From positions 140,518 through 204,517 of the forward strand of contig DAOPYQ010000002.1 of NCBI GenBank assembly GCA_035352955.1: a stretch of 64,000 nucleotides of DNA, given 5' to 3'. Source of the stretch: Candidatus Omnitrophota bacterium (GTDB taxonomy: Bacteria > Omnitrophota > Omnitrophia > Omnitrophales > Aquincolibacteriaceae). The stretch's first letter is position 1, and each line of letters starts with the position of its first letter. Under the pieces are notes generated by a model that worked only from the letters and a program-made list of their open reading frames with translations, did no database searches and was not told where the DNA came from. Below, piece by piece: positions 14,528 to 50,872 of this stretch. Both the position numbers and the translations under genes were made by a program.

Positions 14528-15355
14528 CTACCCCTGCATTCCCAAAAAGTCCCTCACGCGGTACTTCTCGGCATGGATTTTATCACGGACCCTTTGCCAA
14601 AACGAGCGGTCCGGTCCTTCCTGGAACGGCTCAAAACAAACCGGACGGGCAACAAACCCGCTCTTTTCCACCACCCGAGATAAAAGTCTCTCGATCGCGT
14701 GAGCCAAAGTTCCGTTACGCCGAATCGATACCTCACACGGAAAATCTTCCATACCCAAACCCAATTCATATAAAGGAGCCAAGGCCCTCGGGCGGAACCA
14801 GAACATGGATCCTGCCGGGAAAACGACGGCTTTCGTCGCCGGAAGTTCGAGCCCCAAGCGCCCCGCAAGCACCGAACAGATCTTCCAGTTGTTGCTCCAG
14901 GATTCCTTCTCAAGGCCCCCCCCGAGGATCGGGATCACTTCAGGATAGACCATCCCCAACCGTTCGTTTTCCTCGAACATCCGCAAAATCGCCGCGACTG
15001 TTCCGGCAGACCCGGCGAGATTTTCAAGAAGATAACGTCCCCATTCTTTGAGCCACAAGCGGTGAGGACTCTTTTTGGTGTGGACCTTGAGAACAAGATC
15101 ATAACCGGAATAAATTTCCCCGAATTCGCAGAGGAACGGCGCGATATCAAAACCGCGATTCAGGACGCCCTTCAAGAAGATCTTTTTCCCGGGGAACGCC
15201 TCCGACAAAACGCTTCGGACCTTCTTCACAGAAGCCGCGGGAGCTGACGCGTACAGATCGAATTCCCGGGGAATATTCTTCAAATAGCCGGCGATCATTC
15301 CAGCCTGCTCCTCGTAGAAAAAATGTCCTACGACGGCGATCCTGAAAGGGGTCAT
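14528..15355 (-). CDS. RgpF-like (rhamnan synthesis protein F family) glycosyltransferase domain protein
   Basis: MTPFRIAVVGHFFYEE… resembles the N-terminal domain of the 1203-aa protein (RIAIVVHCYYPE…). Start ATG 15355 forms an ATGA overlap with the upstream gene's stop. Confidence 0.5.
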   Translation of the reverse strand: MTPFRIAVVGHFFYEEQAGMIAGYLKNIPREFDLYASAPAASVKKVRSVLSEAFPGKKIFLKGVLNRGFDIAPFLCEFGEIYSGYDLVLKVHTKKSPHRLWLKEWGRYLLENLAGSAGTVAAILRMFEENERLGMVYPEVIPILGGGLEKESWSNNWKICSVLAGRLGLELPATKAVVFPAGSMFWFRPRALAPLYELGLGMEDFPCEVSIRRNGTLAHAIERLLSRVVEKSGFVARPVCFEPFQEGPDRSFWQRVRDKIHAEKYRVRDFLGMQG

Positions 15356-16605
15356 TGAAGATCCTTCGCGATATTCCGGCCCATCGCACGAACGAGGATG
15401 GCTACTCCCTCGTTCCCCACATGACAACAGTCGTCAACATAAAGGGGTTCCGGATGATCCGAAAAAACCCTGGTCAGATCATAGAATTTAACGCCGGCAT
15501 CAGAAAGAGCCTTCCCCATCTCTGAAAGATAGGGGTAACCTTCTTCCGCGGACTTTTTATATACATGGCGTTCGTTTATTGCAATACGGCGCTCTTGATC
15601 TCTTATAGGTTTTGTCCCTAGAACGTATTGATTGGGCTGGAGAAAGTGGTAATACCGGATCCCGTTTGCATTACAGATCCTGTGCATTTGAAGCGAACAC
15701 CGCTCCCAGAACGCTGCGAGGTCCTGATACATCGTGCGATCATCCGCATAAGACCGCTGCGGTCCCATCATAGCGTAAGAATCCCGGACCGGTCGTTCCC
15801 CGGCGCTCAGCTTCTGCATATCCTGAAAGATCTTGGCGGATAGCGACCCATCGATAAGCCGAAAGACCAACTGCATGGTAAAGCTGTAACGGAAAAGATT
15901 CATTGAAAAAACGTCCGCCACGGTTTTGCGGGTCTTCTTCAAACGAATGAGATCGGCCCTTCTCAGGATCTCCTCGGGACCGCCAACCTCCCGGAAAAGC
16001 CGCCATCTCCATCTGCGCGGAAAAAACAAACATGTTTTGTCGGGAAGATTTTCGGTTACGGGAAGAACGATATCGTTGAAGCCGTCTAGATTAATGATCA
16101 TGTCGAAGGCCCCGTCCAACGCCAACATGTAATTCAAGATCATCAATTGCTGCGGCTGTTTATATCCCCCGAAAGCGAAATTCAGAAGAACGATCTTTTT
16201 ATCCTTCAAGGCAGGGATTTTTTTCAACTCATCCCTCAAGGCCTCCATGCCCAAAAAACTAACGCTCATCGCAACCGATCCGCCGAAAACGGCAACAATA
16301 TATTGTTCGTCCGACTCGCGCTGAAAAGGGATTCCTTCGCTCTGGTGACAACGGCCCACAAAACCGTATTCGGAAGTACATGGCGCGTGTTTCGAATCCC
16401 GGGGCCCGAGAACATACCCAATATAGGGATGAGCCACCTCGTTTTGCAGAGACAATGGAAAATTCGGTCGGCCTTTTGGAAAAGGACCGTCATGAACATC
16501 CACCCGGTCGAGGAACAATTTCCCGAACGCAAAAGAAAAAAGCTCCAGGACCAACGCGCTTAAAATGATCGTGGCACAGAAAAAAACGACTTTCTTGAAT
16601 TTCAT
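15352..16605 (-). CDS. Membrane-anchored SGNH/GDSL-like hydrolase/acyltransferase (putative polysaccharide O-acyl modification)
   Basis: N-terminal TM helix. SGNH blocks FGGS (I), DGFND (III) and C-terminal DDCCH (DxxH, V). Confidence 0.5.
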   Translation of the reverse strand: MKFKKVVFFCATIILSALVLELFSFAFGKLFLDRVDVHDGPFPKGRPNFPLSLQNEVAHPYIGYVLGPRDSKHAPCTSEYGFVGRCHQSEGIPFQRESDEQYIVAVFGGSVAMSVSFLGMEALRDELKKIPALKDKKIVLLNFAFGGYKQPQQLMILNYMLALDGAFDMIINLDGFNDIVLPVTENLPDKTCLFFPRRWRWRLFREVGGPEEILRRADLIRLKKTRKTVADVFSMNLFRYSFTMQLVFRLIDGSLSAKIFQDMQKLSAGERPVRDSYAMMGPQRSYADDRTMYQDLAAFWERCSLQMHRICNANGIRYYHFLQPNQYVLGTKPIRDQERRIAINERHVYKKSAEEGYPYLSEMGKALSDAGVKFYDLTRVFSDHPEPLYVDDCCHVGNEGVAILVRAMGRNIAKDLQ

Positions 16606-21800: not shown

Positions 21801-22459
21801 GAGCCCACCAGCATTTCCAGCATGATCTTACGCCACAGGTCCCCTCCGCCGGGCAATCGGCCGTCCCCCTTTTTGGTATGCAATTTGCACACGACCGCAT
21901 ATTTTTTTTGGATCAAGGTGGGGATCAACGACAAAAAGGGACCGATATCCATCCCGCGGTTGGCGCCAAAATAGAAATGAGCTTTGGGAAAAGATTTCGA
22001 TACGGCAGCTCTTACGAGGGCTTCGCGCTCCGAAGGCGCCGTAATGAAAAGATCAAAGCGGTAACGCAACGCCTCCAATTTCGCTCCGATCTGGGGCCAC
22101 AGCTCAGGATAATAACAATGAACCACAATGGCAATCCGCGGCGAGTGGGGCCCCTCTTCCAAAAAACAAGCAGCCTTGCCATTTTCCTCGAAGGCTGCCT
22201 CCTCAATCGAGCAAGGAGTCCGCCCTTCCGCGCGACCGCTGCAAGCATAATGATGAAAAGGGTCTCTACCACTCAACGCAATATCAGGGTTTCTCTCGAG
22301 ATACCAATCTGCATCAAAACGAAGCCCGTGGATCCGGAGGTGGATCTTTGCCCAAAGCATAAGAATTTTGACATAAAGAAACCAAAGGGCGTCTTTCACT
22401 ATGGCCGGTAATGAACCTGTTCCTTTTTTTTCTCCGATCCTCTTATGCCGGTTCTTCAC
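18848..22459 (-). CDS. Giant three-domain glycosyltransferase: N-terminal WY modules, RgpF-like domain, GT2 domain and C-terminal GT4 domain
   Basis: 1203 aa. DADWYLERNPDIALSGRDPFHHYACSGRAEGRTP near the N-terminus. RIAIVVHCYYPELW (RgpF-like). SIVIPAFGEG…ILVDNGSS (GT2). C-terminal FAESFGRSVAEGMAARRPVIAYRGGALPELV (GT4). ATGA overlaps at both ends. Confidence 0.7.
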   Translation of the reverse strand: MKNRHKRIGEKKGTGSLPAIVKDALWFLYVKILMLWAKIHLRIHGLRFDADWYLERNPDIALSGRDPFHHYACSGRAEGRTPCSIEEAAFEENGKAACFLEEGPHSPRIAIVVHCYYPELWPQIGAKLEALRYRFDLFITAPSEREALVRAAVSKSFPKAHFYFGANRGMDIGPFLSLIPTLIQKKYAVVCKLHTKKGDGRLPGGGDLWRKIMLEMLVGSDANFAEAVEAFVKNPTLCMVGPAPLFQSGPRLMYENYQGLKKLAQELYGQTVPKTEWGFFAGTMFWVRPEALEKLSGFADSFLEGQVGEYRMDGRLEHALERFFGLIPVYRNEKVGLLHLRTSRPSDGCLSVIDILSSAGKASTTNVLQQFARLEKDETTIRQSGLFDENYYVQKCESYFHPDTNRVIHYLLYGTHEGLWPNRYFSPNEYRKLNPDVVKRDVEPFVDYLTRGARDRVRFRWRLEDEKRKAPHYPLAVLGGELVPWETVRAVSRDERLVSIVIPAFGEGALTERCVRSILGEGAAVPYEIILVDNGSSAKDRAVFRTLAGSDPRIRLVENERNYHFALGSNIGFRHSRGGTIIFLNNDTIVTPGWLDRLIAPFSDPKVAAVQPRLIYSDGRVQNVGMVFSQWSVIPYPIYQGSRNGQPFLDRSRAFQAVVGACLAVRATDFAAVKGFDPSFVDGHEDIDLCLRLTRGTGRVCWYEATSTVLHDEGRTPGRGLYNLHNRREFFGRWQGKIEPDDTAYYRQDGFEVAGWTVDANDYLKDGVAIHAPVLVGADVPVENKRPECAHPFRFWVGDLSAGDVPCEDSYVPGITALKDGRMSVLLCAHAANKQLFGAERSFLDVLEALSSLDLNVFVTFPSVPGPSYLEEVRKFVSGVYVFRCRLWTRGVATENSVVARFRSIIDFHSIGLVHVNTLMLREPLLAARNAGTVSLMHVREIILEDQPLALQFGLKPREVLKQIHANADFLVANSRKTAEMLGPGKRVFVAPNVVRTDLLDISNTVDPRAIVFGLISSNIRKKGIFDLMEIAKLCEGSVPQAVFMLIGPEDGKDIQRLKKEYQGAKMLGNVRFAGYKETPVAAVSEVNVVLNLSLFAESFGRSVAEGMAARRPVIAYRGGALPELVQDQGSGYLVPFRNIRAVADRVEQFCKNPELIAQFGKAGREIVGNYSLENLAKALDSIYGQVSGRIAGKRTTKAENIR

Positions 22460-24312
22460 GCCTCTTGTTTTCCCTTCACACTAACCGTTTCAAATCCTAA
22501 AGATCTGCATCCCTGAAAGGGCTCGGAAATAACATGTTCAACGGGAACATGTTTATAAGAAAAAACAGGGCACCGTTCCTCTCGCCCTCCTTTTTTCGTC
22601 AGAACAAGATCGATCGTTCCGCTGCCCCATCCGAAAGGGTCCCCGTCAAAAGCGAACCGGTCGGGACTTCTTAGATAAAGACTGGGCCATGCCACCGGTT
22701 TCAAAAATAGCCGAAGCGCGGCACGCCGCCCAAAGATTTTTTCTACAAAACCTCTTTCATCGACGACGCTCGCCGCTAAAACAGTGCTTCCCGCGATAGT
22801 TACGAGAAAATGCTTCGCCCCGCGAGGGATCTTTTTCAGGATCTCCGGATCCCTGACATCCAGCAAAAGATCGTAGCTCTCTTGACCAGCATATCGGACG
22901 GTCAGCACGACACCCTCCGAAAAAACGCTTTCTCCGAGAATTTTTGAGGGGGCGCGAACCGATCCTACGGGTATTCTTTTTTGTTGTCCGTTTTCTGTAA
23001 ACGTTAAAAAAACTCTCCTGAAATCCTCGATCGGGAATGACAGCGGCAAAAACACGACGTTGAACGGATCCGCAGATGCCAAAAGAAAAAAACCTCTGAC
23101 ATTCCGTCGGCCAAGTCGCCCTTCTTTCAGAAAAGGCCTCGCTTGGTCTGCGAATAATTCCGCGACGATTCTTCCTCCCGCGTTGAAAGAAAGCTTTTCA
23201 TAATCGGAAAGCGCCCCCGTAAAACAGCCCCGAGGGGCCTTATTGAGCAAAGGCGTCAATCTCAGGGAAGAAAACCCCCATTTCCCCCTTCCTGTCAGAT
23301 AAGAAAACAGCTCCTCCGCAACGATCCGATTTCCCCATGCATTGGCATGATCAATATGCTCGTTGAAATACAAAAAGGAACCTAAAGAAGAGGGTCCCTG
23401 CGGAGCAAAAAAACTCACGTTCGGCAACGGAGTGAGCTTGCGTAATCCTTGTATCCAGTCTTCCTGAGCTAAAACAATCACATGCTTTGTCTTTGCGGCC
23501 GTTTCCTTAAAAATAGCCGCATAAATAGGCAAAAGTTCTTCCTGGGAGGAACTGGACCATTGATAGTAAAATGGGTTTCGTCTCGAATGAAGATTCGAGG
23601 GCAACACAGCCCGCAAAGCCATGGGCATTCCCTGGTCATACCTCAAATACTGCAGCGGGCACAGGACTTGATTGTAAATTCTGGAAGCCTGGTTACGATC
23701 GCTCCCAAAAACAGACAGAAGGGTAAGCTGGTCATTCTTAAGAATATAGCGCGCATGAAGCGGTCCGTACGAAAAAGGGTGCTGAAAAGAGAGGTCCCTA
23801 TCATAAGGGATGTCATGAATGGTCAGGATCACGCAGTCCAGATCCCGGGAACGGCTGATCAGCTTCCACAACAGAAACTCCTGAAACAATCCGTAGCGGT
23901 TCCCGCCCAAATTAATGACCTTCACACGCGTCAACCCGGCCGCCTTGAACCTTTCTTGAAGAAGTCCCGGATAGGTATAAGCGTCCTGCCCCAGACGCCC
24001 CCCGCTCCGCGTCATTGATCCTCCGAAAATCCCTATCTTGACCGTTCCAGGACCCTCTTGTTCGAGAAGATCCTTAAGATAAGTTGGTTCCATGCTTCCG
24101 TCTTTGGAATCGCCTTGATAGTTGAACCAACCGAGATCGAGATACTCCTGCTGGCTGACGGCGAATTCTTTCCTGAAGGTCGTCGCCAAACTCTCCTGAA
24201 AGACCTTGGGACCCTTTAAACTGCGAAACGCCGCGCGGTATCCGGCGACATACCCCATCCCAAGTAAGGTCACGAGGAGCCCGGCCAGCAATACAGAAAT
24301 AATCTTCTTCAT
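22456..24312 (-). CDS. Membrane-anchored SGNH-like hydrolase/acyltransferase with large C-terminal extension
   Basis: Start at MKKIISVLLAGLLVTLLG (TM/signal). VKIGIFGGSMTRSGG (block I-like GGS) and a DHANAWGNR region. C-terminal ~300 aa have unknown function. Confidence 0.4.
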   Translation of the reverse strand: MKKIISVLLAGLLVTLLGMGYVAGYRAAFRSLKGPKVFQESLATTFRKEFAVSQQEYLDLGWFNYQGDSKDGSMEPTYLKDLLEQEGPGTVKIGIFGGSMTRSGGRLGQDAYTYPGLLQERFKAAGLTRVKVINLGGNRYGLFQEFLLWKLISRSRDLDCVILTIHDIPYDRDLSFQHPFSYGPLHARYILKNDQLTLLSVFGSDRNQASRIYNQVLCPLQYLRYDQGMPMALRAVLPSNLHSRRNPFYYQWSSSSQEELLPIYAAIFKETAAKTKHVIVLAQEDWIQGLRKLTPLPNVSFFAPQGPSSLGSFLYFNEHIDHANAWGNRIVAEELFSYLTGRGKWGFSSLRLTPLLNKAPRGCFTGALSDYEKLSFNAGGRIVAELFADQARPFLKEGRLGRRNVRGFFLLASADPFNVVFLPLSFPIEDFRRVFLTFTENGQQKRIPVGSVRAPSKILGESVFSEGVVLTVRYAGQESYDLLLDVRDPEILKKIPRGAKHFLVTIAGSTVLAASVVDERGFVEKIFGRRAALRLFLKPVAWPSLYLRSPDRFAFDGDPFGWGSGTIDLVLTKKGGREERCPVFSYKHVPVEHVISEPFQGCRSLGFETVSVKGKQEA

Positions 24313-24457
24313 AGAATTCCAAATCAGTTGATCTGATAGATGAAACCGCCCTCCTGAGGGCCGCTTGTGATGATCATAAGGAACAACGTCAGCAAAAAGA
24401 GCGCCATCAAAAGAATAGCGCCCCACAGCACATATTTCCCGAAAGAGATCTTTCCCA

Positions 24458-25457: not shown

Positions 25458-27089
25458 TCAGGAATGGATCTTCCGGCGTTCTTTTTTCCCGAACCTTAAA
25501 TAATGCGCTTCCGCTTTTTCTTTCGTGTTGATCCCCGCTCTTTGCAGATCCGGATAGTGACCGACATAGAACTGCCAATCAAAAGAATGAAGTCCATCCC
25601 CGGGATCGATCGTCAAAACCGCTGTAACCGGATCCCCACGGAGCGCCATCCGCAACGGAAAAAGCCCCATAGGCTCCCTCCGCTCGTTGACGATCCGCAA
25701 CACATATTCCGACGAATATTCTTTTTTGATGACCGGAACTTCGTTCAAATCCCAATCCTGGGGATACTGGTATTTGTCCATATAAGGAACAAAAAGGGGC
25801 CGGAAGAATTCCACATCCGCCGGAGTAAACCAGTCCTTCCATCCTCCGTAAGTCTTGCTGCGGACCACCCTCCGCCAGGCAGCGCTCACCTGCGCGTCAG
25901 GATCCACCTTCAATTCCAGAAAATCCTCCAGAGGCCGCACCTTCTTATCCACAAAATCCTCATATTTCATGATAAACGCCGGCCGCAAGAACTCCTGGAC
26001 TTCCTGAAACATCCGAATCCCTTCGGGGATCCGGTGAAGGCGGATGCGCTCTGCCCAAAGGCTTTTTACCGGAACGGAGTGCGGATCTTTTTCTTTCCTG
26101 ACGAGCAAAGTCAGCAGCCGCTGCAAGGCTCCAAGGTTTTCACAGATCAGAAGCGAATCGAACAGCAGATTGCTCAGGATCCTGTCCCGGGGATCCCTCG
26201 TGATCAGCACTTTCTTGTCGAATCCCGCGAACGACGGAAGGTCGAGCCCGGGATTAAAAACGATCTTGGCAAGCACCCCGGAGTCCCGGTCCTTCTCCTC
26301 GGGAATGTATTGATGAGGCTCGAACAGCGCCCGGGCATCCGCCGGCATCCCGGATTTCACGGCAAAAAAGAGAGCCGTGGTCCCCGATTTGCTTTGACCG
26401 ACCAGCAAGATCTTCGGAACGCGGGATCGGCTGGCCGCCAACGCGGGATCGATCACTTCGTGGAATAAATTTCCGTAGACCTTCCGCTCGATCGCCGCCC
26501 ATCGCGGATTTTGATCGTACATTCTTTTGATGTCCTGGGGGCTGAAGCACCGCAAGACCACGCTTTCCGCACTCACGTATCCGGTGCCGAGAAAATCCTT
26601 GGCTGCATGCAACGCGATATCCGCTCCGCGGTTCAACCGTATTTCCCGTATCTTGATCTTGACAGAATCGGGGATTGAAATGAACTTCTGCAGGGTCTTG
26701 ATAAAATCCTCAGCAAGATACTCCACCCGCAACCAATGATCAATCCCCGAATCCAGGAACGGTGCCAGCACCTGATCGGCAGACGCCTTCCCGGTCATTC
26801 CGACAAGACCTTCCGTGATCCGCTCCCGGTCGATCTTCTGAAGATGATCCCGCCGGTACAAATGGTTCCAACGGCTCACAAGCCACATCGGCAACCGCCG
26901 GATGTTCAGGATTCTTGGCTTGCCGGCGCAAAGATCCGGATGATCCGAAAAGAATTTGTGTTTATCGGGATCTTCCTTGCCGTGGGCCAACAGAATATCC
27001 TTGAGCCCTAGAAGATCGAACATGGCCTTCGTGCTGTCGCCGCCCGTTTTTCCCAGATGTCCCCAGCAAAATCTTTCCGTAATGAACAT
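25458..27089 (-). CDS. Di-domain sulfotransferase with C-terminal WY..PDL..HY module
   Basis: N-terminal GHLGKTGGDST matches the 5'-PSB KTGG(T/S) motif of carbohydrate sulfotransferases (HS6ST-like). Second domain LLVGQSKSGTTALF (5'-PSB PKSGTT-like) plus ITRDPRDRILS (3'-PB RDP(R/K)D). C-terminus FDWQFYVGHYPDLQRAGINTKEKAEAHYLRFG. Confidence 0.65.
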   Translation of the reverse strand: MFITERFCWGHLGKTGGDSTKAMFDLLGLKDILLAHGKEDPDKHKFFSDHPDLCAGKPRILNIRRLPMWLVSRWNHLYRRDHLQKIDRERITEGLVGMTGKASADQVLAPFLDSGIDHWLRVEYLAEDFIKTLQKFISIPDSVKIKIREIRLNRGADIALHAAKDFLGTGYVSAESVVLRCFSPQDIKRMYDQNPRWAAIERKVYGNLFHEVIDPALAASRSRVPKILLVGQSKSGTTALFFAVKSGMPADARALFEPHQYIPEEKDRDSGVLAKIVFNPGLDLPSFAGFDKKVLITRDPRDRILSNLLFDSLLICENLGALQRLLTLLVRKEKDPHSVPVKSLWAERIRLHRIPEGIRMFQEVQEFLRPAFIMKYEDFVDKKVRPLEDFLELKVDPDAQVSAAWRRVVRSKTYGGWKDWFTPADVEFFRPLFVPYMDKYQYPQDWDLNEVPVIKKEYSSEYVLRIVNERREPMGLFPLRMALRGDPVTAVLTIDPGDGLHSFDWQFYVGHYPDLQRAGINTKEKAEAHYLRFGKKERRKIHS

Positions 27090-44272: not shown

Positions 44273-44363
44273 AGCGCCCTTCCTTCACTCGAATTTATGA
44301 ATACTTACCAGGACGATCGATCCGCGGCAACCCGGCCCATTTTACCAATAACTTATTTTCGGC

Positions 44364-44585
44364 TTATTTGACCCGAAGGTGAAGACGAAGATCCAGAACA
44401 TGGCTCAGCCGGAGAAGGAGGTCGAGTGAAAGATTCTGAAGCCCCCGCTCAATTCTGGAAATATTGGCCTGCCGCGTACCTAACTCCCGGGCCAAACCCT
44501 GCTGCGTCAGCCCCTGCCTGAGCCTCGCCTTCGCCACAGCCCTTCCGATCTCTCTCTGTAATGCTACAAGCGACGTCTTTGCCAT
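44364..44585 (-). CDS. XRE-family helix-turn-helix transcriptional regulator
   Basis: LRQGLTQQGLARELGTRQANISRIERG HTH_3 motif; 73 aa. Confidence 0.7.
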   Translation of the reverse strand: MAKTSLVALQREIGRAVAKARLRQGLTQQGLARELGTRQANISRIERGLQNLSLDLLLRLSHVLDLRLHLRVK

Positions 44586-44619
44586 AGCTAACAGCCTCCG
44601 GGACTTCCCCCTTTTGCCG

Positions 44620-45085
44620 GAACTCTTCGCCCCACACTAACTCTACGACCGACACTAACTTTACGGCCGACACGAACCCTTCAACCGAAGCGAACTCTTC
44701 GACCCACACTAACTCTCCGTCCTACACAACTCTCCGGCCTACGCAACTCTCCGACCAGCGCTAATTCTCCGCCTACACGAACTCTGCAGCCGGCACGAAC
44801 CCTTCAACCGAAGCGAACTCTTCGACCAGAACTAACTTTCCGACCCACACTAACTCTCCGTCCCACACGACTCTCCGGCCTACGCAACTCTCCGACCAGC
44901 GCTAATTCTCCGCCTACACGAACTCTGCCGCCGGCACGAACACCTCAACCGAAGCGAACTCTCCGGCCAGAACTGACTTTCCGGCCCACACTAACTCGTC
45001 CGTCAACACCAGTTCTCCAGCCAACTCAAATTCTCCGTCTTACACAACTTTCTGTCCCACACGGTTCTCCGCACCACACCCCCAC
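44620..45085. repeat. Array of ~26 tandem degenerate 17-18-bp repeats (consensus ~YACACNAACTCTYCGRCC) with a higher-order ~123-141-bp periodicity (~3.5 copies)
   Basis: Read directly. The landmark cacgaac(c/a)c(c/t)tcaaccgaagcgaactc recurs at 44671, 44794 and 44935. One frame is open across the array but has no start codon. Confidence 0.85.
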
Positions 45086-45092
45086 GGCTATT

Positions 45093-45122
45093 TTGCCGTA
45101 TATCATATATGATATACGGCAA
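45093..45122. promoter_or_regulatory. 30-bp perfect palindrome TTGCCGTATATCATATATGATATACGGCAA (candidate operator for a dimeric HTH regulator, or hairpin)
   Basis: Checked base by base: the reverse complement equals the sequence itself. Lies between the repeat array and the 3' end of the minus-strand island genes, ~500 bp upstream of the XRE gene start. Confidence 0.8.
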
Positions 45123-45252
45123 GAAACCCATGGAATTGAACTCGGTCGGCTTATGAGTGTCCGGGCTACAGACTTCGAACGGACTGAGACCTGGCGGTGT
45201 CGTAGAAAGAACGTTGGCCTCCCTGCCGGGGGCCAAACGGAGGTCCGCGGTC

Positions 45253-45441
45253 CTATTTTGCGGCGGATTTGAACATCCAGAGCGCGAGGAGGAACGCCAC
45301 CGCCGCTCCCACAAAACTCAATTCCACGGGAATCGCGGTTTGCCCCACCGTTACCGGCGTTTTCAACAAATACCTCACGGCATGCGCCAGCGCCACCGCG
45401 AGAAAGATGACTCCCGAAACCATCAACGGCCTTTTCTGCAT
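45253..45441 (-). CDS. Small two-helix membrane protein (hypothetical)
   Basis: MQKRPLMVSGVIFLAVALAHAVRYLL…VGAAVAFLLALWMF; RBS GGGG upstream of ATG 45441. Confidence 0.35.
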   Translation of the reverse strand: MQKRPLMVSGVIFLAVALAHAVRYLLKTPVTVGQTAIPVELSFVGAAVAFLLALWMFKSAAK

Positions 45442-45556
45442 GTTTCCCCTCCCGCTGTTAACCTCTCGATGTCGTGTACGGCACACCTTGAGAAGTGACG
45501 GCATCACATTTGATTAACCGAATCAAATGCCTCCCGGACGACGTTCGATCCACAAG

Positions 45557-47635
45557 CTACTTTTTTTTACCACTAGGTGTCGCTCCGAGTCGGAAGTACA
45601 ACCGCTCATAAGTGTCGAGCAACTTATCCATCATTTTGTCAGCAGCATCCACTCTTTCAGGGCTTCGCAATTTAGAAAGCAGGTCGATCAACGCCTTTGC
45701 TGGCAACTTGATCACTACGGTTCTTTCATGCTCGTGATATATTTCACGAACCCAATCCAATTCCTTACCTTTTTCCAAATTCACGCTCTCAGCTCGATTA
45801 ACAATAAAACCAAGGCGTCCATACTCTCCCGTCAAGTAAGATAACATTTGCCTATATTCTTGAGGCCCCAGATCAGCTGAGAAATTTTTAATCTCAAATA
45901 TTACTTGGCGAACGCCATAGTCATGGAGAATCCGCTGCCACGCATCTGTTTTCCCGTTATTTCGCGCAACAACATCCCTACGTTGCGTCGCGTTTTTATT
46001 AGGATGCAGCTCGGCGCTCACTAGCCCCCCAGCAAATACAATTTTTAATACTGTCAAACACCACTCCTCAAACTCTGTTGCGCCGGTGTCGCCATGAGGA
46101 ATTTTTGCCAGCTCCGCCATTAGTTGGCCCAATTTCTTTTTTCTGATTTCGGGGGTTTCAGACGACACTTCGATATCGTACTCATCGTGGATTTCATCAA
46201 CTTCCGCCGCTGGCAGTTTTTCCTCTTCGAGATTCAACGCGATCCAATAGCATGGATGCACAAGCAATTCCGTCTCTCTAACAACCAAAAAATCAGGATC
46301 TTTCCCATCGTGACAAAAAACAAAACTCGAGGCATCGTTCTTCCACACCCCTAAAAAACCAACGCTAAAAAGACACTTAACAATTTCTTCTGGCCTCTGA
46401 AATATTTTTAAGGTTTGAATTTCAACAGGCTTGAGGCTCTCATTGTTTATAATGTCATAAAGCAATTTTTCTATACTTCCAAAGGTGTTTTTTGCGCTGG
46501 CACCCGCAAACGCGTGTACGCAAAGACTCAAGCCTGGCACTATCCCTTCATATTCTTTCTTCAGGTCATCAAGACGCGAACAAGAAATTTCTCTAGCAGA
46601 CACATCAATATCATCTTCGTAGATTTCATTTCGTTTGTTCGACAGAGCATGGTTAAAAGCTCTATTCATTAAAACGATCAGATCTCTCGGCCGATATAGC
46701 GTCTGACGTAAGCATCGTCTGAAGCCCGTCATGCCACTCAATTCGCGAAAAGCTATTGCATTCCACACTTTAATGCTTTTATCATTCTCGATATTAAAAA
46801 CTTTTTGTATTCGGCTGCAAATCATATCGAGCAAATGTTGCTCATCCCAATGCAATCTCAAAACATCACCTTCGATATTTCGGGAATAATCAGGATCCTG
46901 CAACTGAATTGCTCTAAAAATATTGTCGCGTAGAAATGCGGTCGCTGTCGTCCTGGGCAAACTCGTACTAAGCTGGTCCAGGGCATAAAGCAGCCCTGTC
47001 AAAATAGCAACCCCCAACGAATCCGGCTCATACCCATCGTCTAATCTGTCAGCTAGAATTTTTACGGAGTAGTGTGCGCCATCAAGCACATTTGCTGCCA
47101 TTTTTTGGAGAGAGGTAATACCCAACGACGTTGTTAACGCGGCTATTCTCCGTTCAACAGGAACGGAGGTATCTACTTTTTCTTCTAAGGCCGAATATAG
47201 CCGTGCCGTTAGACTTTCCCCGCGGCGAGACCAACCTTGCGCCAAGATACGGATATCTGCTTTCTGCTCAGAATTTAATTTGTAATTATTCATACAAGCT
47301 ACAAGAATTTCATTCAGAACAGCATATTGCCACGCAATGTTACATGCCGCGCGCAAATAATTTTGTTTTTCTCCAAACAAAGAAACGAGACTGCGTAAAC
47401 CTATAACGTCTGCTTCTCCAGGGGTTAGATCAATTACTGTAGTCTTGACCGCATCATGCAAATAGCTCTTTAGCTTATAGTGAAGAGCACTCTTCCCCGT
47501 TCCTCTCCGGCCAACGACAATACGCCTTTTACTTTCTTCAATCAGCGATCTGTATTCGGAGGTTTCATAGAAAGCATGGTCTAGCATGTATTGATCTAAT
47601 TCTGCCCGTAAGTCACCCAATGGATTAGTTTTCAT
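45557..47635 (-). CDS. P-loop NTPase fused to a C-terminal Mrr-like PD-(D/E)xK restriction-endonuclease domain (candidate defence/toxin protein) in a low-GC island
   Basis: Walker A VGRRGTGKSAL and Walker B ILADRLDDGY. C-terminus FEEWCLTVLKIVFAGG…RRDVVARN…VIFEIKNFS fits Mrr_cat (E…D…(E)xK). Gene GC ~43% versus ~58% for the surrounding genes. Confidence 0.6.
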   Translation of the reverse strand: MKTNPLGDLRAELDQYMLDHAFYETSEYRSLIEESKRRIVVGRRGTGKSALHYKLKSYLHDAVKTTVIDLTPGEADVIGLRSLVSLFGEKQNYLRAACNIAWQYAVLNEILVACMNNYKLNSEQKADIRILAQGWSRRGESLTARLYSALEEKVDTSVPVERRIAALTTSLGITSLQKMAANVLDGAHYSVKILADRLDDGYEPDSLGVAILTGLLYALDQLSTSLPRTTATAFLRDNIFRAIQLQDPDYSRNIEGDVLRLHWDEQHLLDMICSRIQKVFNIENDKSIKVWNAIAFRELSGMTGFRRCLRQTLYRPRDLIVLMNRAFNHALSNKRNEIYEDDIDVSAREISCSRLDDLKKEYEGIVPGLSLCVHAFAGASAKNTFGSIEKLLYDIINNESLKPVEIQTLKIFQRPEEIVKCLFSVGFLGVWKNDASSFVFCHDGKDPDFLVVRETELLVHPCYWIALNLEEEKLPAAEVDEIHDEYDIEVSSETPEIRKKKLGQLMAELAKIPHGDTGATEFEEWCLTVLKIVFAGGLVSAELHPNKNATQRRDVVARNNGKTDAWQRILHDYGVRQVIFEIKNFSADLGPQEYRQMLSYLTGEYGRLGFIVNRAESVNLEKGKELDWVREIYHEHERTVVIKLPAKALIDLLSKLRSPERVDAADKMMDKLLDTYERLYFRLGATPSGKKK

Positions 47636-47844
47636 GTCAATCCTTCCTTTTTAAAATCACCGCACAATACAAGTAATAGCCCCTTCGAACGAATAATTAC
47701 TCGCTAACGCGAACCACTGAATTCCGGGGGCACATTACTTAATGCTATTCCCTCACCCGAACTGCGAGACCTTTTCGCAAGAGTTCGTTATTGAGATAAT
47801 CACCTCGCCAAGCTGAGATTCTTCGCTTTGCTCAGAATGACGAA

Positions 47845-47880
47845 AACAAAAAAGGCGGTTTCCCTTTTGAGGAAACCGCC
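47845..47880 (-). terminator. Rho-independent terminator-like hairpin (minus-strand orientation) inside the island's non-coding remnant
   Basis: ggcggtttcc-cttttga-ggaaaccgcc perfect 10-bp stem, preceded on the plus strand by aacaaaaaa (U-run on the minus strand). Confidence 0.5.
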
Positions 47881-48293
47881 TCAGACAATGCAAAAAGACG
47901 AGAATCCCACCGCCCCAAGCTGATAGCCTGGAGCGTACCCGGCTCTCGCGCTGTTCGCTCGTGTCCGGTTACGGGCACTCGATCAAAAAAAACACTGCGT
48001 GAATTCTCTGCTCCTACATCCCAAGTTTCAAGGAAAATTAGCGATTTTTTTCGGAAAATTCTTTTACTCGCTTCCCCGAACGGGAAAAGTTTCAAGGGAT
48101 ATTACGGCCGCAGTCCACGGACTGCAGACTGAAGACCGGAGACGGAAAATCTGTGTTCTCGGATCTGACAGACTCTTTCCTAAAATGTTCCTCGAACACG
48201 CCGATCAATTTCGTTCAATTTATAGCATTCATGGAATTCTTTTTAAATCATATTTTATTTGATTAATCGTGAATCTCATGATATCCTTTCCTT

Positions 48294-48842
48294 ATGAGAA
48301 ACAAATCGGAACTCATAAAGCTTGAGAAAGTCACCCGAAGAATCTTCCTTATCCGTGGCCAGCGCGTAATCATGGACTCCGACCTGGCCGGGGTCTACGG
48401 CGTTAAGACCAAATCTCTGAACTTGGCCGTCAAACGTAACGGCGCGAAATTCCCCGCCGATTTCATGTTCCAGTTGACCCGCAAGGAGGACGAAACTTTG
48501 AGGTTTCAAATTGAAACCTCAAAAAAGACACGGGGCGGCAGACGTTACCTGCCCTACGCCTTCACCGAACACGGGGCCATCATGGCAGCGAATGTCCTGA
48601 ACAGCCCCCACGCGATACAAATGAGCGTTTTTGTGGTGAGAGCTTTTATCAAAATGCGGTCTTTGTTATCGGACAACAAAAAACTCGCCGAAGAACTGAG
48701 GGCGCTGGAAAAGAAGCTGACCGGACGGCTGAATGTTCATGAAATCGCGATCGTGGATGTTTTGCGAAAGCTCATGAAATTACTCGAGCCCCCACCCGAA
48801 GTCCCCATTCCCGAGAAGCCGCCCATTGGGTTCCAACCGTAG
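48294..48842 (+). CDS. ORF6N-domain protein (phage/mobile-element associated KilA-N-like DNA-binding protein)
   Basis: IRGQRVIMDSDLAGVYGVKTKSLNLAVKRNGAKFPADFMFQLT…GGRRYLPYAFTEHGAIMAANVL is collinear with ORF6N family proteins. Confidence 0.7.
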   Translation: MRNKSELIKLEKVTRRIFLIRGQRVIMDSDLAGVYGVKTKSLNLAVKRNGAKFPADFMFQLTRKEDETLRFQIETSKKTRGGRRYLPYAFTEHGAIMAANVLNSPHAIQMSVFVVRAFIKMRSLLSDNKKLAEELRALEKKLTGRLNVHEIAIVDVLRKLMKLLEPPPEVPIPEKPPIGFQP

Positions 48843-48876
48843 ACCTACCCCGCAGGGACGATAAAAAGCATCGAGG

Positions 48877-50049
48877 TCAGCTCTGTACTTTGACGGCTAG
48901 TCCCTTTTGCAAAAGTTCGTTGTTGAGGTAGAGCTGTTTGCCGTCCTTTGAGGTTACCCAGACGTCGGCTAAGTACCTGTCATATTTGTCGGACTTGGTG
49001 GTTTTAATCAATATTGCGGGACACGGGCCACGGTCCACGGAACACGCCAGGACCTGCTCGACAAAGGCTTTGGCTTCCTTCCCTTCCTTGCTGATCAGTT
49101 CCGGGCAGTCAATAGCGCGAAGGCGCAGGGTCTGGACACTGCGGACGCCAAAGCCGAGGTCGACCACGGCTTCCAGCGTGTCTCCGTCGAGCACCCTTTT
49201 CACCCAGGCGCGGTAAGTGTAAAGGTCCCCTTCCGTGCGTTTGGAAAGACGGATCAAATCCGCGGGCGCGGAGCCTCCTCCCGCGAACGGAGGCGTGGAT
49301 TCGATCAGAGCGCCTTCTTTGAAACGGAGATCCTTGGAGGTCTTGTAATAATTGGAAAACCCAAGATCAATCACCACCTTACCGGTCTCGGGACCCGACA
49401 GGGCTTTGACGACGCGGTACGTCCCGGGCTTCCCGGGTTCGGCTTTGAGCGAGGGAGAAGATTCCACCGGCTCTGCGGCGGCGCGGGCTTCGGCCTTCGC
49501 CTTCCCGACCTTGACCTTCTTCACTTCCTCGCGGGTTTGGTCGCGGTTCCATTTCTCTTTCACCGCTTTTGCGGCAAGGGTTTCCCTTTCTTTGGGATCG
49601 TTGACCGCAAGAAGGGCCTGGTACTGGCTCCAGCTCAATTCATCGGCCGGCCGATGAATTGGGTACGTCCGCGCGAATTGGAGCATGTAGCGTAGTTCGG
49701 TCTCACTCTGGCCAAGGTCCGCGGCAAGACGCTTCATAACCTGTTGGCCGTAGTCCGCGCGCTCTTTGTGCTGGAGGACATGCGTGTCAATGAGCTTGCC
49801 GATCTCCCACGCTTCGCGGACCTTCTCCTGGTCGACGGCCTTCTCGACACGGGCCACGCTCTGCGCCCGGGCGTCTCTCACGGCCGTCAGGAGTTCCTCA
49901 TAAGTCGTCACGGACGCCGCGGCGGGCGCAGCGCCCGGGCCGGCGACTTCTTTGGGAGTTTCTTTTTTCCCGGGGGTTTCGGCAAAGACAAGCGCGGGTG
50001 AAACAAGAAGCAACGCGAGGGATAAAGCGGAGAGAGCTGTCCTTTTCAT
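48877..50049 (-). CDS. Secreted nuclease: signal peptide + DUF1016_N (YhcG N-terminal-like) domain + C-terminal staphylococcal-nuclease (SNase/thermonuclease) domain
   Basis: Start MKRTALSALSLALLLVSPALVFA (RBS AGGAAAGG). REAWEIGKLI…ADYGQQVMKRLAADLG…LSWSQYQALL resembles DUF1016_N. C-terminal VLDGDTLEAV…RLRAIDCPE…DKYDRYLADV matches SNase catalytic motifs. Confidence 0.65.
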   Translation of the reverse strand: MKRTALSALSLALLLVSPALVFAETPGKKETPKEVAGPGAAPAAASVTTYEELLTAVRDARAQSVARVEKAVDQEKVREAWEIGKLIDTHVLQHKERADYGQQVMKRLAADLGQSETELRYMLQFARTYPIHRPADELSWSQYQALLAVNDPKERETLAAKAVKEKWNRDQTREEVKKVKVGKAKAEARAAAEPVESSPSLKAEPGKPGTYRVVKALSGPETGKVVIDLGFSNYYKTSKDLRFKEGALIESTPPFAGGGSAPADLIRLSKRTEGDLYTYRAWVKRVLDGDTLEAVVDLGFGVRSVQTLRLRAIDCPELISKEGKEAKAFVEQVLACSVDRGPCPAILIKTTKSDKYDRYLADVWVTSKDGKQLYLNNELLQKGLAVKVQS

Positions 50050-50232
50050 GGAGAACCTTTCCTTAATGAGAGACCGGCTTCCAAAGAATGAGAAACCGAG
50101 GTGAGAATATTCTTCCCCGCCCCGCCTTGCAACACTTTTTATGGGGCTTCCCCCCGGGGCAGAAAATGCGGCCAAAACTTGCAATATGTGTGCGCACATA
50201 TTATACTTGTATTAGAAAATAAGGAGGACCCT

Positions 50233-50457
50233 ATGCCGAACATGACACTCTCGATCCCTGCCGACCTGAAGGCAAAAATGGACCGTTTCAGGGAGATCAA
50301 CTGGTCCGAGGTCGCGAGACAGGCGATCTTTCAAAAGACCCTTGTCATGGACCGAATGAATCAGCTGATGTCCTCCAGTAAGATCAGTGAGCCGGAAACC
50401 GTCTACGAAGCCCGCAAGATCAGCCGCAAGGTCGCGAAAAAACACAAAGCATCCTGA
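50233..50457 (+). CDS. Putative antitoxin (small RHH/VapB-like protein)
   Basis: 74-aa ORF with strong RBS AAGGAGG. Its stop overlaps the downstream PIN gene start (TGATATGG). Confidence 0.45.
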   Translation: MPNMTLSIPADLKAKMDRFREINWSEVARQAIFQKTLVMDRMNQLMSSSKISEPETVYEARKISRKVAKKHKAS

Positions 50458-50458
50458 T

Positions 50459-50872
50459 ATGGAGCTGGTGGTCGACGCCAACATTCTTCTGGCGGGCTTC
50501 ATGAAAACCGCCGTGACGCGGGAACTTCTTCTGGACTCCCGGCTAAAGCTGCACGCGCCGGAATATTTGGTCTATGAAACCCGAAAACACCTTCTCGGAA
50601 ATTCCGACCTGAAACGCCGCATCGGTCTTTCCGCCAGTGAGATCGATAAGATATGGTTCCTTCTTACCCAGAATATCGAATCCCACGCACAGGGAGACTA
50701 CCAAAAAGCCCACGCAACGGCACTCAAACTTGCGCCCCATGCCGAGGATGCTCCTTACCTCGCATTGGCGCTGAGCATGAACATACCCGTGTGGTCGAAT
50801 GACAAGGCGATGGCCATGCAGCCCAGGATCCGAATCCTGACGACACGCGACATTCTTGTCATGCTCCGTTAG
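50459..50872 (+). CDS. PIN-domain toxin (VapC-like)
   Basis: MELVVDANILLAGFM… N-terminal PIN acidic-residue pattern; 137 aa; tightly coupled to the preceding small ORF. Confidence 0.55.
   Translation: MELVVDANILLAGFMKTAVTRELLLDSRLKLHAPEYLVYETRKHLLGNSDLKRRIGLSASEIDKIWFLLTQNIESHAQGDYQKAHATALKLAPHAEDAPYLALALSMNIPVWSNDKAMAMQPRIRILTTRDILVMLR

Follow-up and report, generated by a model that had tools for sequence, protein, structure and literature searches.

What is half a kilobase of ordered short repeats doing directly upstream of a small regulatory gene, and how did it come to be there? The locus in question belongs to a Candidatus Omnitrophota bacterium (assembly GCA_035352955.1, contig DAOPYQ010000002.1), and lies within a stretch of 64,000 nucleotides that we have analyzed as a whole and call the window. 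At 44619-45088 there is an array of 26 contiguous head-to-tail units of 17-18 bp, about 470 bp in total when parsed by hand. The adjacent gene, encoding a protein of the XRE family, is on the minus strand, and the array is therefore its 5′ upstream region. It sits between the presumptive operator of the XRE repressor and the start codon, a point missing from an earlier reading of the letters of this DNA, to which we refer as the original prediction. The array is a bacterial minisatellite, an element of a known kind; its position is informative, and there is some hint that it was once coding. The explanation towards which we lean, with somewhat better than even confidence, is that of a lineage-specific minisatellite in the XRE leader, inserted or expanded in place, a probable relic of coding sequence, and exerting a passive effect in cis.

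An ordered array of degenerate units

Tandem Repeats Finder called a period-18 array at 44621-45002, with 21.5 copies and 71% matches, as the single outstanding tandem array of the 64-kb window. The consensus of the unit on the plus strand is AACTCTyCGrCCnACACk. Seven of the 26 units (6, 7, 9, 14, 15, 17 and 24) are 17-mers, and the others are 18-mers. The original prediction of about 26 degenerate 18-bp repeats over about 465 bp is therefore borne out. As it had also recognized, the units abut without spacers; no cas domains were found using Pfam or among the called genes, and a CRISPR array can be set aside.

A higher-order structure is superimposed on the unit. Tandem Repeats Finder reports a period of 141 bp (91% matches, 44673-45004) and a second of 123 bp, and the distance matrix of the units reveals three blocks (units 4-10, 11-18 and 19-21) that are mutual copies at offsets of 123 and 141 bp. 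There are two periods because the second block holds one extra unit. Units 4 and 11, 8 and 16, and 9 and 17 are identical, and the pairs 7/15 and 10/18 each differ by one base. Both analyses thus agree with the blocks of seven to eight units that had been predicted with these two periods. The near-identity of the blocks indicates that the array grew by unequal recombination or slippage. The most degenerate units are 22-26, at the end away from the XRE gene, closest to the palindrome described below. At ≤2 mismatches a 12-nt core of the unit matches the window at 20 sites, where 7.0 would be expected and none of 100 shuffles gave more than 15. Of these sites 12 belong to the array, which is unique within the window.

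An assembly artefact had been raised as a possibility in the original prediction, and independent sequence data answer it. A contig of the assembly GCA_964411105.1 is identical to the window across 15,088 bp, array included; this contig ends at window position 49451, and the assembly is therefore a different one from that of the window. Short-read unitigs from the runs SRR5007244 and SRR4236661 match the window exactly over 43578/43758-44700, and on the palindrome side over 44899-47843 (SRR5007244) and 45093-47846 (SRR4236661). The XRE-side junction of the array is reproduced from both runs, up to 44700. On the palindrome side the SRR5007244 contig reproduces the junction and reaches into the array to 44899; the one from SRR4236661 ends short of the array, at 45093. 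The unitigs that enter the array end where the duplicated blocks start (44700 and 44899), so that the copy number within 44701-44898 comes from the long contigs alone. An artefact of assembly is thereby excluded; the copy number of the array is less secure, although its length is identical in the two long assemblies.

In its construction the array resembles the intergenic minisatellites of bacteria, the variable-number tandem repeats (VNTRs), such as those of MIRU/ETR type that serve in typing. These too lie outside genes and consist of imperfect 10-100-bp units joined head to tail; they change by slippage or unequal recombination and break short-read assemblies, as does this array. It differs from VNTR loci in the unusual degeneracy of its units, in its clear higher-order structure, and in its exact position between a conserved presumptive operator and a gene.

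The palindrome, the XRE leader and the boundaries of the array

The XRE protein matches Pfam HTH_3 at 4.9e-13, together with HTH_31 and HTH_37, and in PADLOC it matches HTH_VI, the restriction-modification (R-M) 'control protein' and a capH-like entry. On the far side of the array from this gene is a perfect palindrome of 26 bp, GCCGTATATCATATATGATATACGGC (Table 1), with imperfect arms that extend it over 45082-45133. The original prediction had placed a palindrome of 30 bp beside the array, which is borne out, with the perfect part measuring 26 bp.

We compared the locus with 14 loci, from genomes and metagenomes, that carry homologues of the XRE protein (63-84% identity). The core of the palindrome, TATATCATATATGATATA, allowing ≤3 mismatches in 18, is present in 12 of the 14, where it ends 15-51 nt before the XRE start. 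It is followed in the homologues by a recurring leader comprising CGGCAA.A, a G-rich stretch, a Shine-Dalgarno sequence and the ATG. The window retains a leader of this layout, with the Shine-Dalgarno GGAGG at 44595-44599, and 513 nt separate the palindrome core from the start codon. The closest relative (L007, 84% identity) shares the downstream order XRE, methyltransferase, hydrolase and has its palindrome 24 nt from the ATG. No tandem array was found upstream of XRE in any of the 14 homologous loci examined. Since the array is absent there and the palindrome lies near the ATG, the array is a lineage-specific addition inside the leader.

The palindrome also recurs within single loci, before neighbouring genes, with two copies in L005, three in L006 and two in L012. 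Because it is conserved upstream of XRE in most of these loci and repeated before adjacent genes, it is almost certainly the operator of the XRE repressor, and possibly its promoter. It lies just upstream of the gene for the regulator itself and is kept among homologues, and the pattern resembles that of a small local regulon whose XRE or controller protein regulates its own gene, the operator being putative. The operators of C-proteins and XRE repressors are likewise perfect inverted repeats directly upstream of the regulator, conserved, and repeated before adjacent genes; it is the palindrome that they resemble, and not the array. The difference is that in the window the array displaces the presumptive operator by 0.5 kb from its gene.

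Copies of the palindrome, in contigs of Omnitrophota type, were located at position 5932 in L004, 5955 and 6240 in L005, 4968, 5962 and 6291 in L006, 2059 in L007, and 3675 and 4012 in L012. Further copies are at position 5 in L013, 4960 in L048 and 2360 in L049, and there are others in L052 and L053. A search of viral contigs for the palindrome gave no match. The loci L009 and L011 encode an XRE protein identical to that of L007, L008 and L010 without a 103-bp segment that contains the palindrome, and this insertion/deletion upstream of XRE is bordered by a 5-bp direct repeat, AACGG. The presumptive operator is therefore polymorphic between strains.

The boundaries of the array carry an 8-bp direct repeat, TTTTGCCG on the plus strand and CGGCAAAA on the gene strand. 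The first base of the array is also the last base of the XRE-proximal copy. Removing 479 bp, that is the array and one copy of the repeat, rebuilds the layout of the relatives, in the order palindrome, CGGCAAAA, GGGGGAAGTCCCGGAGGCTGTTAGCT and ATG. As this deletion restores the architecture of the relatives, we conclude that the DNA of the array was inserted or expanded in place. The direct repeat is a candidate target-site duplication; in 3.4% of shuffles the two 41-nt boundary windows have an 8-mer in common.

Other routes by which the array might have arisen were explored. Beyond the 8-bp repeat no homology was found at the junctions. Tandem duplication of the native ribosome-binding site (RBS) or leader was rejected as a source of the units, because local alignment of the leader with the consensus or with the whole array is no better than with random or shuffled sequence. 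A possible 'proto-array' upstream of the palindrome in L007 was dismissed too, its shared 8-9-mers not being significant. The array has no terminal inverted repeats, the sole inverted repeat in 44300-45600 being the palindrome; with neither these nor other copies, it is not a miniature inverted-repeat transposable element (MITE) or an element of insertion-sequence (IS) type.

The original prediction had proposed searching the genome and databases for other copies of the 18-mer, and in genome, metagenome, viral and plasmid collections none that is related was found. A degenerate pattern of three units matched 28 short 17/18-bp repeats in 185,579 species genomes, all of them unrelated and none in Omnitrophota. 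A 23-base pattern gave one unrelated perfect 17-mer repeat in metagenome contigs, blastn of the array against plasmids gave no match, and exact-pattern scans of the genome, metagenome and viral collections gave no related array. With the array unique in the window as well, we reject a dispersed family.

Two look-alikes merit description. A 28-copy tandem repeat of exactly 18 bp, GGCCGGAGGGTTTATCAA, occurs in viral contigs from IMG/VR (L043, 4549-5060; L046, 8771-9282), where it encodes an AGEFIK/AGGSIK domain of a 305-aa phage protein beside a helicase-like gene. These arrays share the 12-mer GGCCGGAGAGTT with the window, but they code for the hexapeptide AGEFIK, and the variable sites of the window's array would be second codon positions in that frame; we take the likeness to be coincidence. 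Short 17/18-bp tandem repeats with the core CGGAGGGAGAGTTG occur in the Acidimicrobiia metagenome-assembled genome LejiaB_2_63_13 (L017, 1-72; L022, 33-98; L023, 5688-5738; L030, 1-85). In three of the four contigs they are at contig ends, which suggests a dispersed satellite that breaks the assembly.

Coding status and ancestry

Is the array a gene? On the plus strand one frame across it has 226 stop-free codons (44592-45272), between stops at 44589 and 45272; the TAA at 44589 lies 3 nt beyond the XRE start codon. The first ATG, GTG or TTG of this frame is at 45093, so that there is none for 167 codons, and no purine-rich RBS was found for it on a strand that is only about 14% G. The minus frames over the array contain 4, 6 and 11 stops. 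No gene is called in the array in the deposited annotation of GCA_964411105.1, and there is no Pfam match. Because there is no start codon, no RBS, no gene call and no Pfam match, and there are stops in the minus frames, the array is not a gene now, and its description as noncoding in the original prediction can be left as it stands. A frame open for about 210 codons without ATG, GTG or TTG had also been pointed out. The frame is indeed open and has no start before 45093, but it loses its notability, since a plus frame that is fully open turns up in 30% of the sequences obtained by shuffling unit order and in 19% of those from dinucleotide shuffling. The length of the open frame reflects composition, and we reject it as evidence of coding.

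The short opposite-strand open reading frame (ORF) of the original prediction is present. It reads VEEFASVEGFVS and occupies 86 codons at 44449-44709 on the minus strand, with a GTG start after GGAG inside unit 5, running through the last units and the leader into XRE in another frame. If translated, it would pass over the XRE start site.

The distribution of changes among the units tells more about the past. Substitutions are unevenly spread over the positions of the unit (p<5e-5), and 56 of 99 fall on every third base, positions 1, 4, 7, 10, 13 and 16. Positions 2, 8, 11, 12 and 17 are almost invariant, and position 13 uses all four bases about equally. Read in codons, the unit gives T-L-R-P-T-[L/R] on the plus strand, and [S/R]-V-G-R-R-V in the minus frame with the same wobble positions. 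With block copies collapsed, 35 of 62 changes are synonymous in either of these two frames. Uniform random placement never reached this value in 2000 trials (p<5e-4); under a stricter null that keeps the unevenness and permutes the variable positions, p=0.05. Differences between the block copies fall on the same position class in 8 of 11 cases, and 6 of the 11 are synonymous in the actual plus frame. Moreover, three 1-nt deletions per block sum to 3 nt, and the block lengths of 123 and 141 are multiples of three.

We searched for a protein from which such a sequence might derive. In a word-indexed search covering 5.8 billion proteins the plus-strand translation had no match. A full HMMER scan against 1.84 billion cluster representatives gave ten weak matches, none at an E-value of ≤1e-10, the best having an E-value of 4.6e-9 and 44% identity. 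The five matches for which the sequence was read are Pro-rich short-repeat linkers, three of them of TVKPTx/TVRPTx type. The idealized minus-frame peptide (SVGRRV)n found one low-complexity, probably spurious ORF (P0040), which we discount.

Known 18-bp repeats that encode hexapeptides, such as the Pro/Thr-rich TVKPTx linkers of secreted proteins and the AGEFIK domain of the phage protein in L043, share with the array the 18-bp period, an apparent concentration of variation at third positions and block lengths in multiples of three. The array differs in having no start codon, RBS or non-repeat domain, in its seven 17-mers, and in a likeness to such proteins that is weak and of low complexity. 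In the phage example every unit is exactly 18 nt inside an ORF of 305 aa, unlike the array. A constant unit length divisible by three, as in a hexapeptide gene, is thus not what is seen here.

Descent of the array DNA from a hexapeptide-repeat coding sequence, now orphaned, is suggested because the changes fall mainly on every third base and because the C-rich strand reads as a stop-free, Pro/Thr-rich TLRPT[L/R]. We put this at a little short of an even chance. A remnant of a repeat-protein gene was among the ideas of the original prediction, and it gains some support from the period-3 substitutions, the block lengths and the hexapeptide; it is held back by the p value under the conservative null and by the failure to find a source gene. 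The array might instead be a purely non-coding satellite, derived from slippage or non-genic capture and drifting neutrally, with the period-3 signal and open frame as by-products of an 18-bp C-rich unit. The borderline result of the conservative test, the frequency of open frames among shuffles, the absence of a homologous gene from the protein searches and the commonness of 17-nt units all agree with this. Yet the four most variable sites of the wobble class coincide exactly with the sites of four-fold degeneracy in the codons for Leu, Arg, Pro and Thr, the 8 of 11 recent block-copy differences on that class correspond to a binomial p of about 0.009, and the deletions within each block together restore the frame, and we regard a purely non-coding origin as rather unlikely. 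At the other extreme, the plus-strand frame 44592-45272 could be translated today as a Pro/Thr-rich repeat protein from a non-canonical start, for which its 226 stop-free codons, in-frame block lengths, period-3 substitutions and weak likeness to Pro/Thr-rich linker repeats might be cited. We find this hardly credible for a frame that lacks both initiation codons and an RBS, is closed just past the start codon of XRE, is antisense to the XRE leader and crosses the palindrome, and would be open by chance as often as the shuffles indicate. Only 6 of the 11 recent changes are synonymous in the actual frame, and no gene call, Pfam match or close homologue was found.

Possible effects on the XRE gene, rival functions and the surrounding locus

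In the relatives only 15-51 nt remain between palindrome and start codon, from which the palindrome is inferred to overlap or adjoin the promoter. We propose that some 470-480 bp of array was inserted or expanded between the presumptive operator palindrome and the XRE RBS, and then grew by block duplication. The presumptive operator, and probably the promoter, would now lie about 0.5 kb from the XRE start codon, with an effect that is passive and in cis. If the XRE transcript is still started there, it would carry a leader of about 510 nt that includes the array. On the gene strand G makes up 43% of the array and C 14.5%, and there are 18 GGA and 12 GGAG motifs. For eight GGAG-like, that is Shine-Dalgarno-like, motifs a start codon lies 4-8 nt downstream, and GTG and TTG codons out of frame are numerous. 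A G-rich unstructured leader of this kind would be expected to weaken XRE translation or to uncouple it from operator control. Alternatively XRE may use another promoter. A sigma-70 consensus scan found no promoter-like site in or beside the array, in a phylum whose promoters are not characterized. A tolerated insertion is the parsimonious reading of the locus, and there is no sign that the array was selected for an effect on the leader.

The array does not appear to act as a structured RNA on either strand. Its folding z-scores of -0.31 and +0.05 on the two strands are those of shuffled sequence, and a permissive Rfam scan found no match inside it, the sole match in the 4-kb region (45255-45334) being at chance level with E=0.75. 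We therefore reject a structured RNA. As for intrinsic terminators, the two candidate sites both fall within the 62-aa gene upstream of the palindrome and are no more than chance would give.

Might the array be a set of working binding sites, resembling iterons or a centromere, that titrate, spread or insulate a DNA-binding protein beside the defence islet described below? Its contiguous direct repeats are of iteron-like length, it adjoins a regulator and a defence islet, and its conservation is position-specific, with AACTCT, C8, CC11-12 and C17 near-invariant and position 13 fully degenerate. Plasmid and phage iterons and the type II/III partition centromeres (parC, tubC) are likewise direct repeats of 17-22 bp, non-coding and beside the gene of a small DNA-binding protein. 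However, it is the palindrome that is the conserved XRE site, and its half-site has no counterpart in any unit at ≤3 mismatches in 13; together with the absence of the array from the 14 homologous loci, this makes binding of XRE by the array unlikely, and the iteron-like array of regulator sites envisaged in the original prediction is not supported. Across the window we tested about 35 ORFs, using Pfam and the called genes, and found no Rep, ParA/ParM/TubZ, transposase, integrase or reverse-transcriptase gene among them. They encode glycosyltransferases, sulfate-assimilation enzymes, transporters, radical-SAM enzymes and the small defence islet. In the 10 kb to each side of the array, and over most of the window, the Pfam matches and called genes are of housekeeping or defence type alone. 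The nearest match to a DnaA box (TTATCCACA, ≤1 mismatch) is more than 13 kb away, and no AT-rich tract adjoins the array except the AT-rich 18-bp core of the palindrome. A replicon iteron array is rejected on these grounds, even though the 26 units of 18 bp fall within the 17-22 bp of iteron direct repeats, and so is a partition centromere of parC/parS/tubC type, with no gene for a partition NTPase or adaptor among the ORFs tested. The array is moreover chromosomal, its copy number of 26 is far above the usual 3-10 of iterons and centromeres, its mixed 17/18-bp units break any fixed phasing, and it is kept neither in relatives nor in two large collections. Working binding sites are accordingly improbable in our judgment. 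Still less probable is a selected cis-regulatory leader, in which GGAG/GGA motifs would act as decoys for ribosomes or a CsrA-like protein, or the DNA would promote R-loops or pausing, with copy number as a rheostat of XRE output. The location between presumptive operator/promoter and RBS would suit such a role, as would the G-rich composition and the motifs followed by start codons; against it, there is no folding signal, about 10 of the 26 units have no GGA, the array is specific to its lineage while XRE regulation in the 14 relatives does without it, and the transcription start that it would need is hypothetical. On a broader view of selection, the array could serve as a length-tunable spacer, a protein-bound or R-loop-prone barrier that sets the XRE level and with it a defence-gene threshold, or as a repeat ORF without start or stop on the C-rich strand, expressed unconventionally. 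This is proposed because position-specific conservation persists between recently duplicated blocks, and we give it very little weight.

Several observations tell against the lineage-specific, inserted minisatellite of coding descent that we favour. The direct repeat is of moderate significance (p about 0.03), supportive and not conclusive. The 9 nt inside the palindrome-side repeat copy extend the symmetry of the palindrome (9 of 13 extra matches) and may be native DNA. If they are, the second CGGCAAAA may be what is left of another palindrome copy and not a target-site duplication; in this alternative history a gene was once flanked by two palindromes, the arrangement seen in L006, and one of them was lost except for its CGGCAAAA end. 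The period-3 signal is borderline under the conservative null, the seven 17-mers would shift the reading frame, and neither protein collection yielded a source gene. Any C-rich repeat translates into a Pro/Thr-rich sequence, and the faint likeness to linkers may be compositional. The position of the promoter is inferred, the consensus scan having given no sigma-70-like site. Finally, the uneven conservation, with its near-invariant positions and one that is fully degenerate, also fits selection for a DNA motif.

Table 1. The array and adjoining features, in coordinates of the window
Feature	Position	Strand	Basis and remarks
XRE-family helix-turn-helix gene, 73 aa, controller or antitoxin-like type	44364-44585	-	Pfam HTH_3, PADLOC
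Native XRE leader	44586-44611	-	Read from sequence as GGGGGAAGTCCCGGAGGCTGTTAGCT then ATG on the gene strand; layout as in homologues
XRE-proximal copy of 8-bp direct repeat	44612-44619	.	Boundary comparison; TTTTGCCG on + strand, CGGCAAAA on gene strand
Minisatellite	44619-45088	.	Tandem Repeats Finder, unit parsing, distance matrix, uniqueness in window
Array block, units 4-10	44675-44797		Distance matrix of units
Array block, units 11-18	44798-44938		Distance matrix of units
Array block, units 19-21	44939-44992		Distance matrix of units
Palindrome-proximal copy of 8-bp direct repeat	45091-45098	.	Overlaps outer 4 nt of palindrome
Perfect 26-bp palindrome, GCCGTATATCATATATGATATACGGC	45095-45120	.	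Inverted-repeat scan; conserved in XRE homologue loci
62-aa hydrophobic protein gene, upstream of palindrome, same strand as XRE	45253-45441	-	Called gene in GCA_964411105.1
692-aa Sll1717-family P-loop ATPase, first gene of defence islet	45557-47635	-	NCBIfam NF047389, 240 bits vs cutoff 75; PADLOC PDC-M36A

The 62-aa hydrophobic protein has no family match in Pfam or NCBIfam. Beyond its gene lies a low-GC defence islet at about 45.5-50.9 kb (45557-50872), with a GC content of 43-48% through 46-49 kb, in which the ATPase gene is accompanied by genes for ORF6N (PDC-S05), DUF1016+SNase (PDC-S02) and PIN_2 proteins. The slot upstream of XRE differs between genomes. It holds the Sll1717-family ATPase in the window, a TIR protein in L006, a KAP NTPase in L012, Fic in L048 and Abi_2 in L049, and proteins without an assigned function in L004 and L005. 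The XRE gene thus borders a variable slot that looks like a hotspot for defence genes. ORF6N and DUF1016+SNase genes recur near the slot, and a DNA ligase gene on its far side is common to L005, L006 and L012.

Over the window as a whole, 63 of the 64 1-kb intervals have a negative GC skew (the remaining one being +0.004), and the cumulative value declines almost monotonically to -6.3. This places the window within one replichore, with a C-rich plus strand. Long ORFs up to about 36 kb are mostly on the minus strand. Three of the minus-strand ORFs, at 15352-16605 (417 aa), 22456-24426 (656 aa) and 25458-27089 (543 aa), lie in one gene run and have no Pfam match at E-values up to 1e-5.

The array is a cautionary case for annotation, for its repeats are neither iterons nor CRISPR and its long open frame is not a gene. 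It would be mechanistically interesting only if it proved to be under selection, or if its length varied with phenotype. If the explanation we favour is correct, it provides a clean natural case of a minisatellite lodged in the leader of an autoregulated repressor. Insertions of this sort could alter the wiring of a small control circuit that borders a defence island, here in an uncultivated phylum. A by-product may prove more useful than the array itself, namely the conserved 26-bp presumptive operator palindrome and the XRE family that together mark a variable slot in the genomes of Omnitrophota.

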